Shown in pieces: positions 1,743 through 26,120 of a stretch of DNA of 64,000 nucleotides. Under the pieces are notes generated by a model. It was not told the origin of the DNA. It saw nothing but the letters and a program-made list of their open reading frames with translations, and ran no database searches. Origin of the DNA: Mizuhopecten yessoensis (taxonomy: Eukaryota); assembly GCF_002113885.1 (NCBI RefSeq), contig NW_018404017.1:1352281-1416280 (forward strand). The letters run 5' to 3'. Positions within the stretch are counted from its first letter, which is position 1, and each line of letters starts with the position of its first letter. The translations under genes were made by a program, and so were the position numbers.

Positions 1743-3080
1743 AAAGGTTGTTTTACAGTCTGGCCTAGCCTCTGTCTGTTCCTTATATCAAACACATGTT
1801 GTTTTACAGTCTTACCGAGCCTCTGTCTGTTCCTTATATCAAACACAGGTTGTTTTACAGCCAGGCCAAACCTCTGTCTGTTCCTTACATCAAACAAAGG
1901 TTGTTTTACAGTCTGGCCGAGCCTCTGTCTGTTCCTTATATCAAACAAAGGTTGTTTTACAGTCTGGCCTAGCCTCTGTCTGTTCCTTATATCAAACAAA
2001 TGTTGTTTTACAGTCTGATCTAGCCCCTGTTTGTTCCTTATATCAAACAAAGGTTATAACTAACAATCGATGTTTTACAACCTTGCCTAGCTCCGTTCGT
2101 CTATATAACAACTAACAAAGATTGTTTTACAGTTTGGCCTAGCCTCTGCCTGTTCCTTATATCAAACACAGGTTGTTTTACAATCTGGCCTGACTCTGTC
2201 TATTCCTTATATTAAACACATGTTGTTTTACAGTCTGGCCTAGCCTCTGTCTGTTCCTTATATTAAACACAGGTTGTTTTACAGTCTGGCCTATCCTCTG
2301 TCTGTTACTTATATCAAACACCATGTTGTTTTACAGTCTTACCGAGCCTCTGTCTGTTCCTTATATCAAACACAGGTTGTTTTACAGCCTGGCCAAGCCT
2401 CTTCCTGTTCCTTATATCAAACACATGTTGTTGTACAGTCTGACCGAGCCTCTGTCTGTTCCTTATATCAAACAAAGGTTGTTTTACAGTCTGGCCTAGC
2501 CTCTGTTTGATCCTTATATCAAACAAAGGTTGTTTTACAGTCTGGCCTAGCCTCTGCCTGTTTCTTATATCAAGCACATGTTGTTTTACAGTCTGACCGA
2601 GCCTCTGTCTGTTCCTTATATCAAACAAAGGTTGTTTTATAGTCTGGCCTAGCTTCTGTTTGTTCCTTATATCAAACAAAGGTTGTTTTACAGTCTGACA
2701 TAGTCTCTGTCTGTTTCTTATATCAAACAAAGGTTGTTTTACAGTCTGGCCTAGCCTATGTCTGTTCCTTATATCAAACACAGGTTGTTTTACAGTCTGG
2801 CCTAGGCTCTGTCTATTCCTTATTTCAAACATTTTCTTTTATAGTATGGCCTAGGCTCTGTCTTTTCCTTATATCAAACAATTGTGTTTTACAGTCTGGC
2901 ATAGGCTCTTTCTATTCCTTATATAAAACAAAGGTTGTTTCACAGTCTGTTCCTTATATCAAACAAAGATTGTTTTACAGTCTGGCCTAGTCTCTGTCTG
3001 TTCCTTATATCAAACAAATGTTGTTTTACAGTCTGGTCTAGACTCTGTTTGTTCCTTATGTCAAACAAAGGTTGTTTTAC
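1743..3080. repeat. 51-bp satellite, type A (GGTTGTTTTACAGTCTGGCCTAGCCTCTGTCTGTTCCTTATATCAAACAAA), ~26 monomers
   Basis: Directly visible tandem array with a 51-bp period. One type-B monomer is embedded at ~2055-2120. Confidence 0.97.
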
Positions 3081-4059
3081 CTAATACTGAACTAATAATT
3101 TCATGTTACTCTGAAAATCTTTATAGGCTGGATAGAAAAACTGGTCCTGGTGGTGGGGTTTTAATCTATCACAAAAATAACATTTTCACCAAAAGACGAC
3201 ATGATCTTGAACATGATGAAGTTGAAATGATATGGGTGGAAATTCACATTGAGTCGCACAGGTTTCTTCTGGCTTGTCTATATAGACCAAAATCACCAGT
3301 TAGATATTGGGAAATTTTAGATTCAGTCATTGAAAAAGCTGTGAACACTGACTTAGATATAGTGATTACTGGTGATATTAATATCAATATGTTAAATAGT
3401 CAACCCCATTCGCACCTTGATAGACTAATAACAAAATTTAATCTTTCTAATTTTATCACAGACCTCACCCTTATCACTCCAACTTCATCAACTTCAATTG
3501 ATTTTGTCTTTTCCAACAACAGAAATATAGTTAAAAATGCATCTGTGCTTCCTCCTATATGTAGTGACCATTCTCTGATACAATTTAACATTTCCTATGC
3601 AGTTTTTAAAAAACAAACCTATCGAAAGAAAATTCTTATTTATCAAGATGCAGATTATGATCAGATGAATAGATGTATTTTAGAAAAAGATTGGGAAAAC
3701 CTTATCAATATACATGATACAAATGAATTTAACAATATTTTATGTGATACAATAAAGCACTTAATTAATGAATCTATACCCACTAAGCATGTAACAATTA
3801 GACCAAATGATAAAAAATGGATGACTAATGCTATTAGACTACATATAAGACAACGAAATAGGGCTCATAGGAAAGCAAAATCTAGTAATTCGGCTTTTCA
3901 CTGGGAAAATTATAGAAAAAAAAGAAATGAATCCATTAGTAGAATATGTGATGCCAAGAAAAAGTATGTTGAAAATTTACAAAAATCATTAAATGACAAA
4001 ACTATTTCCCCTAACAAGTGGTGGAAAATTGCACGAAATGTCCTTAATATAAACAACAA
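3081..4059 (+). pseudogene. CR1/L2-group LINE ORF2 fragment: APE endonuclease and linker, RT core missing
   Basis: Open frame from 3083 carries APE motifs YRLDR..GGGVLIY, LYRP, TGDININM, SIDFVF and SDH, then the KKWMTNAI..R.RNRAHRKA linker typical of CR1/L2. It fuses abruptly to satellite at ~4060. Confidence 0.9.
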
Positions 4060-5127
4060 CTGGCCTAGCCTCTGTCTTTTCCTTATATTAAAAACATGTT
4101 GTTTTACAGTCTTGCCTAGCCTCTGTCTGTTCCTTACATCAAACAAAGGTTGTTTTACACGTTTACGTAGAGGGACATCAGATGATAAATTATACAAGGA
4201 ATTTGGTTGGGAAACTTTGAGCTGCAGAAGAAATAAACATAAACTAATTTTAATGTATCATGTAACAATTAGACCACATGATAAAAAATGGATGACTAAT
4301 GCTATTTGACTACATATAAGACAACGAAATAGGGCTCATAGGAAAGCAAAATCTAGTAATTCGGCTTTTCACTGGGAAAATTATAGAAAAAAAAAGAAAT
4401 GAATCCATTAGTAGAATATGTGATGCCAAGAAAAAGTATGTTGAAAATTTACAAAAATCATTAAATGACAAAACTATTTCCCCTAACAAGTGGTGGAAAA
4501 TTGCACGAAATGTCCTTAATATAAACAACAACTGGCCTAGCCTCTGTCTTTTCCTTATATTAAACACATGTTGTTTTACAGTCTTACCGAGCCTCTGTCT
4601 GTTCCTTATATTAAACACATGTTGTTTTACAGTCTGACCGAGCCTCTGTCTGTTCCTTATATTAAACACATGTTGTTTTACAGTCTTACCGAGCCTCTGT
4701 CTGTTCCTTACATCAAACAAAGGTTGTTTTACAGTCTGGCCTAGGCTCTGTATGTTCCTTATATCAAACGCATGTTGTTGTACAGTCTGACCGAGCCTCT
4801 GTCTGTTCCTTACATCAAACAAAGGTTGTTTTACACGTTTACGTAGAGGGACATCACATGATAAATTATACACTGTTCCTTATATCAAACGCATGTTGTT
4901 GTACAGTCTGACCGAGCCTCTGTCTGTTCCTTATATTAAACACAGGTTGTTTTACAGCCTGGCCAAGCCTCTTCCTGTTCCTTATATCAAACGCATGTTG
5001 TTGTACAGTCTGACCGAGCCTCTGTCTGTTCCTTACATCAAACAAAGGTTGTTTTACACGTTTACGTAGAGGGACATCACATGATAAATTATACACTGTT
5101 CCTTATATCAAACAAAGGTTGTTTTAC
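4060..5127. repeat. Scrambled tandem duplications of LINE pieces and type-A satellite
   Basis: 3788-4258 is re-copied from 4259. The junction TTTTAC|ACGTTTACGTAGAGGGACATC recurs at 4159, 4835, 5058 and 5128. Confidence 0.85.
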
Positions 5128-6390
5128 ACGTTTACGTAGAGGGACATCACATGATAAATTATACAAGGAATTTGGTTGGGAAACTTTGAGCTGCAGAAGA
5201 AATAAACATAAACTAATTTTAATGTATAGAATAATGAATAATGAAACCCCAGATTACCTAAGAGAAAGTATTCAACCATATATTCATGATGAAACCCTTG
5301 ACAGATATCCCCTCCGAACAAACAGATTATTTGATCCCCCTTTATGTCGTACTTTAAAATATGTTGAAAGTTTTTTTCCGTCCATGCTAAAAGAAATGAA
5401 TAGACTTGCCCCAGATATTACTAACATCCAATCTACCGCACAGTTAAAAAGGTTACTAACTACAAAGCAATATATGAAATCTGAAACAAGTGATGTTTTT
5501 AAATACTTTGGCAATCGTGATGTAAACATTATACTTTGCCAATTAAGAAATAATGCTAGTAATCTAAATTATGATCGTTATAAAGATCACTTAATTGAAT
5601 CTCCAATGTGTGAGTGTAACGGATCTTTCGAAACTGCTGCACATTATTTTTCTGAATATAATCAATATAATAATATTCGCCAGACTCTCCAACAGAGTTN
5701 CTTTGATAATTACTAATTTAGCTGTTATATATACCTATTGAATGAAATTGGCTCTGGGCAGCTTAGATGGGTTTTTTTCTTTCTTTTTTTTGTGTGTTTT
5801 TGTGTTGTTGTTGTTTTTTTTTGTTTTTTTTTCTGTTTTCTTCTTCTTTAAGCTTACATCAAGATATGGAGTAACTCCTTTCAATTTAATTAAAGAATTA
5901 CTACATTACTTACAGGAGTTGGTGTAGCCCTACTTACAAATTATATATCTATTTGCTGAAATTGGCTTTTGATCCTTAACAGTGTGTGATGGCTAGTGTG
6001 TTATACATATGGACTGTATGGTCTGTATCTGTTGAGGGAATAAATCCAATATCACCAAATGTTTATACTCAACAGTTTACCTTATATGAATACCAGTAAC
6101 TCATTGTCTAATACTTGATGCTATTCACTGAAGATAATAGTCTAGTAAATATCTCAAATTTAATATCCCTAGTGAAAGGGTTACTATATCTCAAGAATAT
6201 TGAACAAGTCTGTTTACATCAAGGAGTTACTTCCCCTTATCCCAAACATCATATCAATGTACAAATATATGTCTGTGTTTTTTACCACCTGTTGTCACTT
6301 TAAGAAGAGGACTTAGATAGGCTATGCCTGATGTCTGATCCTATTGACTATTGCTTATATTGTCAATAAAATTTGTTGAAATTGAAATTG
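5128..6390 (+). mobile_element. 5'-truncated CR1/L2-group LINE copy 2 with TSD
   Basis: Translates RLRRGTSHDKLYKEFGWETLSCRR..TPDYL..IILCQLRNNASNLN..CECNGSFETAAHYF. It has the 3' stem-loop, AATAAA at 6365 and a (GAAATT)2 tail. AAAGGTTGTTTTAC flanks it on both sides (5114-5127 and 6391-6404). Confidence 0.85.
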
Positions 6391-7240
6391 AAAGGTTGTT
6401 TTACAGTCTGGCCTAGCCTCTGTCTGTTCCTTACATCAGATTGTTTTACACCCTGGCTTAGATCTGTTTGCCTACATTACAACTAATAAAGGTTGTTTTA
6501 CATCCTGGCTTAGCACCGCTCGTCTACATGACACATAACAATGGCTAATTTTCACCCTGGGTTAGCTCCGTTCGTCTACATTACAACTAACAAGATTGTT
6601 TTACACCCTGGCTTAGCTCCGTTGGTCTACATTACAACTAACAAAGATTGTTTTACACCCTGGCTTAGCTCCGTTCGTCTACATTACATCTAACAAAGAT
6701 TGTTTTACACCCTGGCTTAGCTCCTTTGGTCTACATTACAACTAACAAAGATTGTTTTACACCCTGGCTTAGCTCCGTTTGTCTACATTACAACTAACAA
6801 AGGTTGTTTTACACCCTGGCCTAGCGTCTGTTGCGTTTACATTATAACTAACAATCGATGTTTTACAACCTTGCCTGGCTCCGTTCGTATATATAACAAC
6901 TAACAAAGATTGTTTTACACCCTGGCTAATCTCTGTTTCGTCTACATTACAACTAACAATGGTTGTGTTACTCCTTGGCTTAGCTCCGTAGGTCTACATT
7001 ACAGCTGATAAAGGTTGTTTTACACTCTGGCTGAGCTCCGTTCGTCTACATGACAAATACCAATGGTTGTTTTACACCCTGGCGTAGCTCCATTGGTCTA
7101 TATTACAACTAATAAAGGTTGTTTTACACCCTGACCTGGCGTCTGTTTCGTTTACATTGTAATTAGCAATCGATGTTTTACAACCTTGCCTAGCTCCGTT
7201 GGTCTCCATTACAACTAACAAAGTTTGTTTTACAACATAG
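6391..7240. repeat. 52-bp satellite, type B (GATTGTTTTACACCCTGGCTTAGCTCCGTTCGTCTACATTACAACTAACAAA), preceded by one type-A unit
   Basis: Tandem array with a 52-bp period (e.g. 6601 vs 6653). Shares the TTGTTTTACA...TGGC.TAGC core with type A. Confidence 0.93.
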
Positions 7241-20029: not shown

Positions 20030-20830
20030 TTTTATGCTATACATCACGATCATCCGATCACGACTGTAGCTATGTTTTTGGATAAAGATACATAAAAAAC
20101 AACAAAGAATAAAATATGTCCAGTAAATGTCATTTTATTAAATGACGAATAACATGGCAGACATGGATAACAACAATGTCAACAATGTTGCATAAACATA
20201 TTTACAAACATAAACAATATCTTAAATATATATCAAAAAGGTGGAGCACAAGAATACACCACGCCATGCGCCAATTAAAAATATCCAACTATTGTTACCA
20301 AACAATGCTGGCCTAGAATGTGAAGCTAAAATTTGCATGGGTGGGATGATGGGACAAAGAAATTCCGAGCAATTCTTTCACTTTGTAAATTTAATGTTGA
20401 TATCACATGATGGTAATCTGGGTATCTGATTGGCTGATTACCTTGACATAATTAGTATGGTTGTACTCGAATTACTTCGAATCGTATGACCCTGAATCTT
20501 TCAGCTTCACATCTTACAAGTAATTATATAGACGATTAAAACATATAATATTCCGATGAACAACATAAATGTATTTATTGGCCTAAGATGTATTTATGCT
20601 ATAAATCTCCATCACGATCATCCGATCACGACTGAAGCTATTTTTTTGGATAAATATACATCAAGAACGACAAAGAATATAATATGTCCAGTCAATGTCA
20701 TTTTATTAAATGACGAATAACATGGCAGACATGGATAACAACAATGTCAACCATGTTGCATAAACATATTTACAAACATAAACAATATCTTAAATATATA
20801 TCAAAAAGGTGGAGCACGAGAATACGCCAC
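20030..20830. repeat. ~235-bp direct repeat pair (20030-20262 and 20595-20830)
   Basis: Near-identical blocks CATCACGATCATCCGATCACGACT...AAAAAGGTGGAGCAC. GACCTGAGCAGACCTCGYCGGTAGGG is also repeated at ~19766 and ~21129. Confidence 0.9.
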
Positions 20831-21900: not shown

Positions 21901-22910
21901 TGACAAATGAAATTTCCATTTAAACATCTATTTAACGAGTTTCGAACATGTCAAAGCGAGAGTCAGATCAGTGTATTTAAATAGGAAATCAGAGGCCTTT
22001 TCTTTTATCATTGATTGGGATGTTTTGCTTTTTATTTTTCTATAATAATAGGCAAGAATTCAATATTTACAAAAGGACTGCATGTCGCATTTTCTAAAAA
22101 TTGTATTGATGTGGAATTTCTTGGATTTGACCTAGATTTACATAGCAAGTGTCGTCGAAGAAGTAGAAGGTGCTTACCAGTCCGGAACACCCAGTATAAT
22201 TTTTGATGTACTTTTTTATGTGGATTTCATGTCAGAGTTTCTTTTGTTCATATAATACCCTTGTTTTTTCCGATTTTTAATTTCCAATTACACCTTTTTT
22301 CAGCACCTAATATCTTTGGAAGGATACATTATCAAATAGGAAATTATAAACGTGATATTGGTTCCGGGCATGGCAATTTTACTCATTCAGGTGATACCGG
22401 CTTCATAGCTGCTTGTCGTATATCTAATATATCTACAGCTTATATAGCATTGATCTTCAATCAATTATTACGGACCATGGCATCGGTATGAAGTATTGAG
22501 CAAACATTGAGGAGTGTCGCCCAAATATCAACGATTTACACACTTGTATCTCACGTTCCTCAAACTTAAATTCCACTGTCATTCACATGAGCCTGTATCA
22601 TACTGTCCATCAACTATATCAACAAAATCAGACAATGTTTGTTTAATGTAAGCAAATACACTTTGTTTAAATGTTCACAGTAAGTAGGAAGTGTCATGTC
22701 ACAATTTTGCTCGTAACAAATCTCCATGGTCGTGTGGTCCAGTCATCAATAACTCCAATATTTAAGCTGACAGTGCAAGTTAAAAAGATCTCAATTAAAA
22801 AAAAGGTTTTGAAATCTTCCCCGTCTCTTCCGACTATAGATTCTAAGGAAGTGCCGACATTTTAGTTTGTTCTTTTTTGGTAACGAGTATGGGTCTCGCT
22901 GGGTATAGAA

Positions 22911-25348
22911 GAGGGGGCGGACAGGGGGGTCACTAGTTCCCGGTTCCCGCCCCCCTAACTCTCGATTCCCGCCCCCTTATCCATATCTCCCGCCCCGATG
23001 TTGTTTACTCAACTGGTTCTGTTCCACTGTATTTCCGGTCATCGGATAGCTTCCGCTAGTAGGACCGTCCTCATGATTTTATCCTTTATGTACTTTGAGG
23101 GTTTGCGCAATATTAAAAATCGTTTTTTAAAATGTCTGTATATTAACGCTGTTCTGGCAATATTATGGCTCGTTAAAAACTGTAAAAACACGGTAACGTA
23201 ATACGATAGTGATATATAGTGGATATAGTCCATGCCTGTAGTATATGGATTAGCGAGTTGACCCCACTAAATCCGAGGCCGTATCTACTTTCCTTTGTAA
23301 TATAATATTTATCACTGTCGCTTTCATCATAAAGACGGTAAAAACACTAATCGTCTAGTAGGTATATTAGATGTCTATGTTTGATTAGCGAGATGACCCC
23401 ACTAAATCCTAGACTCAGTTCATATACTTCCTTTTTTTAGAAACACCATAACTTCGAAGCGTAGTATAATATGCCTTATTATTGGATTAGCGAGATGACC
23501 CCACTAGGTTCAGTTAACTGCCGGTCCTTTCTCTGACCAAGTCAATGCTACACAATATGACATTTAATGGCCTACCACTTGTTTTAATGTTTCTCGTTTG
23601 TGGCATTTAGAAATAGAAATAATCAGTCATTCGCTTGGGAGCAGTCACATTTCTCCCCCGTTTTGTTCGTGTGGTGAACAATGTCCTCTCCTCTTCCTGG
23701 TGTAGTGCATGTACCTCCTCATTTATGGTTGTTGCTTCTATGCCAGCAGTTAGTCTGTTGTAGGTCTCCTCACCTAGAGTAATAGTGTCATTGTTAATGA
23801 AGTAGTCGGATGGGGCAAGTATGTCTACTACACAATGTGATGGTATGTGTGCTTGTTTAGTTTGAACGAATATAAGGTCATGGTCTTCCTCATATATTCC
23901 AAGGCGGTAAGCATTTGCGGAGGACAGCACTTGCGATTTCACAGCACCCAGTTGAAGATTTACAGCCCCATCCACATCAAGAACAAGGATGTCACCCACG
24001 TCGAACGAAGACTTTTCTCCTGAGTGTGTAGGTTCCGTAACGACAACGTTACTGTTGTCCACAAGTTCAACTGGGTCGCCGTCAACTTAAGTGTGGATCC
24101 TGACACTGTCTCCTTCGCGTACAGATTCAGCGGAAGTGTCCCCGCATTGTATTTTGTTGTGTCCGCACGAACACTTCTCTGTCGAACACCTTTCCCAAAT
24201 GTCTCTCGGAACAGAAGCAGCACTTTGATTTTATCCTGCGATAGCTTGATATACTTCAGGAACCCTGTTGGCGTTGCATACTGCTTATGTTTTTTTGACG
24301 TGAAGTAGTGGTACCCACACAAGGTCTGCTTCTTGATCACCTCTGTTACTGCCTTTGTAAAGTCCGTGGCACAGTCTCAAACAGTCGGCGTCTCTGTCCT
24401 CAGCCTGAGCACACTATGCAAGTGTTCGTTTACCAATGTCAACATTGCGTTTGTGTCCATTTGAAACGAAGAGTTAACCCCAGCAACGACAGACTTTAAA
24501 TCCGAGAGCATCTCGTGCAACATCCGTATTGACTTGACAGTCTTTGATGCAGGTACTCCATGTGGACCTTGCAATGTGTTTGTCCGTATTTCTAACAGCT
24601 GTTTGGCCTCCTGTGCCATGGACAGTAGGGAACGTTCAACTACCCTCAAGTCGTCGATAGCTACTCCCAGAACTGTATTGGTGCCCGACTATGTTGGGGC
24701 AACGGGCCTGCATGCTTTAGATCATATACTTTAATTTAACGTAGTGTGGAGGTCGGCTTTGCCTGCTGTTATCAGATTGGACGCGTACGTCCATGCCTGG
24801 TGGTTCTCCACCACAACCATTCTCTTCACATCTCGTTCAAAAAGGGATAATTCCATCTCAACTTTTGAACACCTCGTTTGAGGCAACGTTCACCAAACCG
24901 ATGCTCCTTTTTAAGTTCCCTGAGGACATCAGAAAACTCGCTGTCGGTGCGATGAGTCACATAAATATAGTAATTGTCCAGGGCAACATCATTTCCTTTT
25001 TTGAAAATGTATACCCCCGCGCTAACAACTTTATCAGCCATGTTGTTGTTGCCAAAGTCGAAGGTCGCCAAAATTGCCGAAGATTTCCGAATGCACGTTT
25101 AGACCTAATAATTGGTCGCGAATCGGACTTGATTTACGGAAGGAGCATTGACATTCTATTTTTTACATTAATAACGTAATATAAGCGTGTTGGTTGCTTT
25201 TAGCACATAATTTTGTTTAAGTATGCTTCTGATTCTCCCGCCCCCGTACGTCCCACCTCCCGCCCCCCTAACTCCCGGTTCCCTCCCCCCTAGCTCCCGT
25301 GTCCCGCCCCCTTATTCCCGGTCTCCCACCCCCCCTGTCCGCCCCCTC
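22911..25348 (-). mobile_element. 2438-bp TIR DNA transposon with 6-bp TSD (ATAGAA), internally deleted, superfamily unassigned
   Basis: 19-bp perfect TIR GAGGGGGCGGACAGGGGGG at 22911-22929, with its complement ending at 25348. ATAGAA lies at 22905-22910 and 25349-25354. Subterminal TCCCGCCCC repeats occur at both ends, with a decayed internal ORF. Confidence 0.9.
23607..25041 (-). pseudogene. Decayed putative transposase of the 22911-25348 element (N-terminal piece joined to ~350-aa C-terminal part)
   Basis: AACATGG start at 25041 (MADKVVSAGVYIF..). ORFs 24377-24649 and 23960-24340 are in one frame, split by a single TGA: QGPHGVPASKT..LTLVNEHLHSVLR..TPTV*DCATDF..CGYHYFTS..FGKGVRQRSVRADTTKYNAGTLPLNLY. 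One frameshift leads to the basic tail TRTKRGRNVTAPKRMTDYFYF*. Confidence 0.7.
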
Positions 25349-26120
25349 ATAGAAAGTGCAGCTTATATTAAACAATATGTATCATCAGTCATATCGAAAA
25401 GATAAGCAAGCAAGAATAAGTCTGGCATGAAATATGATTTATATAGGCAGAATTGAGGAGGATTAATTTGGAAACTGGGAATGATCTTATATCCAAGATG
25501 TGAAACACCAATATAATATTACATTGATAAAACATAATAAAAAAAGAGAGCAAGAACTTAACATAGGTGTCATGAAGTATTGAGCATTTTGAAATGTAAA
25601 ACTTATTTTAACTTAAAATCGATGATACTATATGAACAGTTTAAAGCGCTGAATCAGTAGTAAGTACATGCATTACAAATGATAAGACGGTATACGGGAG
25701 ATAACTCTTCCATAGTAATGGTGTTTGGGGGTAAATTTTAAGATATGTTTGGACAACAAACAGAGTCTATGGAAGAGTTGTCTATCACATAATTATGTGA
25801 TTTTGCCTGCCGATCATCTTAACATGGGTGTAAAACAGCGCATACTCCTCATCATACGGGAATAATGATAGATATCCTGAAGATAAAAGTATTCTCTCAT
25901 TTTCCTGTGTGTAAGATGGAGCTGTCCAGGGTAAGAATGGGGTAAGAAAATGTCTATCTTACATCCCCTTTCATATGACTTAACGGCACGAATTTGGAAA
26001 ACTCCGATATCGTAATGTAAAAAAAGGCGACGTGATGAAATTAAAACCGTTTTCTGTACGATATATTTACCTTGCACGTTAGAAAGTTGGGATTAATTTT
26101 CTGTACAAACTTGCTAATAC

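Follow-up and report, generated by a model that had tools for sequence, protein, structure and literature searches.

P elements end in CA..TG. Members of the P superfamily carry a THAP domain. In P and the zebrafish element the subterminal repeats are inverted, according to the literature on these and other comparison systems (PMC10045372, PMC9587614, PMC7776569, PMC4455052, PMC5753468, PMC3698922, PMC10824691). Among known transposases, only that of P is described as having an insertion domain that binds GTP (PMC7776569), and P transposition involves a 17-nt staggered donor cleavage as well as a requirement for GTP. The GTP contacts given in one report are K385, F443, D444 and N447 (PMC10824691). 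Target site duplications (TSDs) are published as 8 bp for P and the zebrafish element and 7 bp for 1360 and Galileo.

We analysed 64,000 nucleotides of Mizuhopecten yessoensis DNA (NCBI RefSeq assembly GCF_002113885.1, contig NW_018404017.1, positions 1,352,281 to 1,416,280 of the forward strand), here called the window. An element spans 22911–25348 in window coordinates (2,438 bp), and we read it, with a probability of roughly 0.88, as an internally deleted form of a 7.2-kb transposon with GAG..CTC ends and a 6-bp TSD, whose transposase is a predicted relative of that of P with a propeller and a SAP motif. Its features, with terminal inverted repeats abbreviated as TIRs, are as follows.

22905–22910, no strand: left TSD, ATAGAA (flank duplication; the hexamer is single in uninterrupted paralogous sites)
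22911–22929, plus strand: 19-bp TIR starting GAG, at the 3′ end of the gene (repeat comparison and genome-wide 19-mer search)
22933–23002, plus strand: subterminal repeats, three copies of the core TCCCGCCCC with a period of about 22 bp (repeat-family analysis)
23248–23514, plus strand: 30-bp motif present three times, downstream of the gene (repeat-family analysis)
23607–24685, minus strand: what is left of the transposase gene at its 3′ side, including the C-terminal region, interrupted by one stop and by frameshifts (family profile 800–1010 and 1043–1160 of 1163)
24425–24427, minus strand: predicted codon of the third catalytic Glu
about 24558–24568, minus strand: GPxG motif in the 3′ remnant
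24686–24692, no strand: filler at the internal deletion joint (alignment to the long copy L031, of which 2042–6741 is absent)
24731–25041, minus strand: 5′ reading frame from the ATG at 25041, frameshifted in the window and open in L031
25236–25337, plus strand: subterminal repeats, five matches to the core at a spacing of about 22 bp, of which the last extends into the TIR
25330–25348, minus strand: 19-bp TIR closing CTC, at the 5′ end of the gene (repeat comparison and genome-wide 19-mer search)
25349–25354, no strand: right TSD, ATAGAA (flank duplication)

The perfect 19-bp TIR and the exact 6-bp duplication ATAGAA of the original prediction were both confirmed where it had placed them, and the two TIRs are 100% complementary over their 19 nt. 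Genome-wide searches were run on a gapped 988-Mb assembly, in which the exact 19-mer occurs seven times, each time at an element end, and the reversed TIR, as a control, 0 times. In each of the four copies assembled at both ends (that in the window, C5326, C76585 and C4063), exact duplication of the flanks extends to 6 bp and no further. These copies lie at different sites, each with its own AT-rich hexamer, and a 6-bp flank duplication has a chance of about 4e-4 per copy. The count leaves aside C5012, C5106, C1799, C3849 and C74955, where one end is missing or in a gap, together with a truncated copy on C249 and a nested MITE; the ends and TSDs are known from one species. Four TIR matches with one mismatch (L063–L066) lie inside another repeat and were dropped.

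The host sequence into which the window copy inserted is a high-copy repeat (one 22-mer of it has 72 exact matches in the assembly). Among the paralogues of this repeat that were fetched, the site is uninterrupted in 11/11 and most carry ATAAAA once; they agree with the right-side continuation of the window at 6–9 of 12 bases and with the element side at 3–5 of 12. Uninterrupted paralogues with a single hexamer thus support both the element boundaries and the length of the TSD. None of four DNA contig sets contained an unoccupied allele at the window site, which is uninformative because the left flank is high-copy repeat. Several other repeats were seen in the window. The host repeat at 22764–22907 reaches a contig depth in the thousands, another very high-copy repeat starts at 25892–25950, and a 221-bp direct duplication with 95% identity lies at 20042–20262 and 20610–20830. 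Long stop-free frames on both strands with repeated units (2317–5713) are probably a minisatellite.

Sola2 and Sola3 elements have GRG or GAG termini and make 4-bp or TTAA TSDs. The GAG..CTC ends follow this rule, as the original prediction had noted, and TTAA is contained in 2/4 TSDs; however, the TSD is 6 bp, the other two copies have no TTAA in it, and the lead is unsupported by either the protein or the TSD, so that we regard it as very improbable. The subterminal repeats run in the same orientation at either end, that is, they are direct and not inverted as in P. Their core motif has 8 forward and 0 reverse matches in the window copy and 12 forward and 0 reverse matches in L031, and they are likely candidates for transposase binding sites.

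The original prediction had also proposed a deletion derivative, with the deletion near 24700–24735, and a longer copy from which this could be judged was found on C5326 (L031; 7,243 bp, 92–97% identical to the window copy). The deletion stands and its placement does not: the window copy corresponds to L031 minus 4,700 bp, joined via a 7–8-bp filler at about 24685–24693, and distinct from this is a deletion of 8 bp at 24721. The missing segment held the first two catalytic Asp residues, a cysteine cluster, a DxxH motif, the propeller and the SAP motif, and for this reason neither the propeller with its SAP motif nor the cysteine cluster can be seen in the window copy. An identical deletion joint is found on contig C5012 and in the DNA run X1, so the deleted form was likely mobile after it arose. 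The remaining copies are 98–100% identical across their longest shared parts, which points to recent activity. The C76585 copy is 7.4 kb long and mainly N gap, and further copies enter gaps. No intact copy was found in the assembly, in which L031 has frameshifts and stops and the others span N gaps.

Further derivatives of the family were observed. The copy on C4063 (L033 6775–9283) has a 3′-type end at both termini, inverted around an N gap, and a 6-bp TSD still flanks it. Either a single type of end is enough, or the arrangement is an assembly artefact. A joint at window positions 24204–25119, present in 4/4 DNA contig sets, marks a second deletion derivative. On C249 (L037 299–366) there is a copy of about 70 bp with one true end, which stops in the subterminal repeat and has a 6–7-bp flank duplication. 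A MITE of about 140 bp is made from both ends (L019–L024, L026, L075, L076); its flank duplication agrees at 5 of 6 bases, and a run of G has been replaced by A. The MITE is probably a single insertion amplified by its host repeat, because it is nested in another repeat with identical flanks across loci.

The minus-strand frame that had been described, with one stop and frameshifts, is present in the window copy, and it had been called unassignable; once the long copy L031 is used it becomes assignable as predicted P-related. The window copy covers 800–1160 of the 1163 positions of the family profile, and L031 covers 3–1160 in several frames. Pfam searches with the fragments of the window copy itself gave nothing meaningful. 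The frame at 24731–25041, which is a possible candidate first exon, is uncovered by the probable-RNA contigs discussed below. A search with the L031 core returned 447 cluster representatives at E<=1e-3, and full-length proteins of this family have 1,000–1,400 aa, against 751 in P. The relatives that carry a name are uncharacterised proteins of Mytilus and Priapulus, in line with the marine-invertebrate proteins mentioned in the original prediction, while the majority are without a name. Related loci were absent from both JGI metagenome scans and from one viral-contig scan.

Conservation was read from a 75-sequence alignment, in the numbering of the relative P0008. The columns D115 (67/69), D279 (73/74), H315 (74/74), K318 (73/74) and E851 (33/33) are conserved, D367 is likewise nearly invariant, and ten Cys are each conserved in at least 63 of 71 rows. 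D115, D279 and E851 are predicted to form the triad of an RNase H D-D-E enzyme, with a DxxH motif. The helix NEHLHSVLR had been likened to the last catalytic Glu helix of P/THAP9-type enzymes, and the comparison fits, with Glu in 33/33 rows and TNP-like_RNaseH_C clusters as neighbours. AlphaFold2 models were built from the relatives P0008 and P0028 and not from the protein of the element itself, with a pLDDT of 85.6 at full length and 92.6 for the N-terminal half, which was folded alone because propellers crowded out other matches when the full model was used as query. The RNase H fold check that had been suggested led, with the N half of the relative, to P transposase of Drosophila: Foldseek gave only two matches at E<=1e-3, both of them this protein (E 1.9e-7), with a TM-score of only 0.44. 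A VIA comparison gave Z 10.0 over 258 residues at an rmsd of 4.3, and the next match had Z 6.3. Language-model neighbours in the Atlas were P-type RNase H clusters, at 0.92–0.94 for the N clusters and 0.96 for the C clusters, and the nearest clusters of the C-terminal part bear TNP-like_RNaseH_C. PF21787 (P-type RNase H) matched weakly in 3/20 and 5/18 proteins, with one match above the cut-off. A PDB sequence search with the core gave nothing meaningful, and PDB profile searches returned only propellers and SAP domains and did not find P transposase.

Other superfamilies were compared in the same way. Dada elements are not known to have TIRs. hAT, MuDR, Kolobok and Dada, none of which rose above background in the fold searches, share the DxxH signature as C/DxxH superfamilies, and the IS256-type ISCth4 reached Z 4.7. 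Some Kolobok lineages have, similarly, zinc fingers inside the catalytic domain (PMC9587614), and Kolobok makes a TTAA TSD, unlike the 6 bp of this element. Assignment to Kolobok was rejected on this difference in the TSD. IS3EU/GingerRoot and Polinton share a 6-bp TSD with the element, and IS3EU differs in its TA..TA ends and integrase-like enzyme (PMC10045372). Integrase cores matched the N-half model over 81–98 residues only (Z 5–6), and IS3EU/GingerRoot was rejected on this weak match and on the GAG..CTC ends.

Between DxxH and Glu, residues ~391–738 form a predicted NHL beta-propeller of about 350 aa, matching six-bladed structures. The modelled fold reaches a Z of about 26 against the NHL domains of SOQ1, NHLRC2 and TRIM71, and the profile match to SOQ1 has an E of 3e-25. 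It is present in 32/32 sequences that span DxxH to Glu, at 22–66% identity to the reference, and a SAP motif lies within it (above the Pfam cut-off in 3/20 proteins). Canonical P/THAP9-like long ORFs with PF21788 exist in the same genome (L096, L098), and L098, found via PF21788, is colinear with both halves of the protein. The N half aligns to L098 up to 585 and the C half from 592, in an alignment that is statistically weak, the C half especially; hhalign, run against a thin 6-sequence profile, assigns the N half a probability of 36% (E 4e-4) and the C half one of 1% (E 0.05). By this break at 585/592 the insert of about 350 aa comes to lie within a short insertion-domain loop, and the cluster of ten Cys (~60 aa) falls in an alignment gap within RNase H. 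The propeller is therefore predicted, from models and sequence alignment, to occupy the place of the GTP-binding insertion domain of P. RAG2 is a six-bladed propeller acting with the DDE enzyme RAG1, which bears an insertion domain. The likeness to RAG1-RAG2/Transib is one of functional analogy only, as the propeller here is NHL-type and in the same chain, and RAG1 and Transib matched the N-half model weakly (Z about 4.3).

The reading frame could instead stem from a host gene that was captured or domesticated, or from a fortuitous NHL-gene fusion, in which case the element would be non-autonomous and moved by an unrelated transposase. In its favour, the catalytic core is in just one assembled copy, the gene contains introns, and the element ends are known from one species and from none of the relatives. 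However, the entire gene is enclosed by the TIRs of a copy that has its TSD on both sides, the fold is that predicted for a transposase with a conserved D/D/E, and the propeller keeps the same position in all 32 spanning relatives however far they diverge from the reference. We consider a captured gene quite improbable.

Relatedness to P is the reading we prefer, and here the element shares with the P superfamily (6P5A/6PE2; P, 1360, Galileo and zebrafish and human THAP9) the predicted RNase H D-D-E core with DxxH. It differs in a TSD of 6 bp against 7–8 bp, in ends of GAG..CTC against CA..TG, in the cysteine cluster inside RNase H and in the NHL propeller with SAP within the insertion domain. 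The GTP-contact positions appear not to be kept in the family: the D444-like column has D in 4/36 and the N447-like column N in 3/36, in a hand registration on a weak alignment, and the column aligned to the Lys of the L098 MKV has D in 53/71 rows. The Pfam THAP domain was found in 0/38 family proteins, and PF21788 has nine matches elsewhere in the genome and none at the loci of the element. Among 17 long N-termini, near-duplicates and one unrelated protein included, the THAP pattern occurs in 0 and a C2-H-C finger in 3; introns in the genes probably leave many of the family's N-termini incomplete.

An ordinary, catalogued P-superfamily family, still using GTP, might tolerate a 6-bp TSD and extra domains as variation. 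The fold and feature neighbours are all P/THAP9-type, the helical insertion domain seems to survive in both its halves, and TSD size varies inside several superfamilies (PMC3698922); a Repbase or Dfam entry may exist beyond the full-text papers that were searched. Against it stand the TSD outside the published 7–8 bp, the lack of THAP and PF21788 in the proteins and loci searched, and full-text searches that found no paper with this architecture. We hold such a family to be unlikely, if still a serious contender. The lineage is instead predicted to be P-related, with a mode of action like that of P, and is not assigned to the P superfamily, since its TSD length, direct subterminal repeats and GAG..CTC ends depart from those of P.

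Contigs of two runs from different studies (X12 and X13), taken by guess as RNA, cover L031 from 4885 down to about 200–340, and one of these probable-RNA runs covers the gene as a single 4.6-kb piece. A 164-bp GT-AG intron is missing from the contigs, as is a second segment, and these joints are not listed for the DNA run X1. The contigs carry indels at the L031 frameshifts, most of which are absent from them. When L031 is given N at the eight listed indels, open pieces of 228, 478 and 625 codons result, and one stop and one frame switch persist; beyond those eight, the contigs differ from L031 in a further 8 indel rows and 55 substitution rows. An intact spliced copy is therefore likely to exist in other individuals, judging by the contig sequences. 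X20, the single run recorded as RNA, of which about 19% was read, had no reads on the coding region, and among the listed runs with matches none is recorded as RNA. One X12 contig (L031 194) passes the 3′ TIR into a flanking repeat absent beside the assembled ends; this repeat has 84 matches, 3/3 exact matches are uninterrupted, and its high copy number means that the locus cannot be fixed.

Transposase from an intact copy would bind the TIRs and the subterminal repeats of 22-bp period in trans. Excision would then proceed at the RNase H D-D-E site (D115/D279/E851 in P0008), following established DDE chemistry, and strand transfer to target phosphates 6 bp apart, followed by gap filling, would give the 6-bp TSD. 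The window copy is likely to have moved in this way by cut-and-paste in trans, and abortive gap repair after excision is the likely origin of its deletion and filler. More speculatively, the transposase may dispense with the GTP cofactor of P, and the propeller and SAP motif would be likely to aid the binding of target DNA or a host factor.

No paper describing this architecture was among those listed by the full-text literature searches. We tentatively suggest, at rather less than even odds, a widespread sister lineage of P that forms a group of its own, GTP-free, with the propeller and SAP motif as a single-chain counterpart of RAG2, direct end repeats and 6-bp TSDs, and both transcribed and mobile. 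The locus supplies defined ends and a TSD, and with them a copy that is nearly complete and signs that the gene is spliced and for the most part intact, so that the lineage can be classified and its activity put to the test. A relative of P with a propeller in the insertion domain, apparently without the GTP contacts, is a natural comparison for what that domain does, and the shorter TSD offers one for how target bending sets TSD length. The lineage would also account for a group of NHL/SAP proteins that invertebrate annotations list as ‘uncharacterized’.
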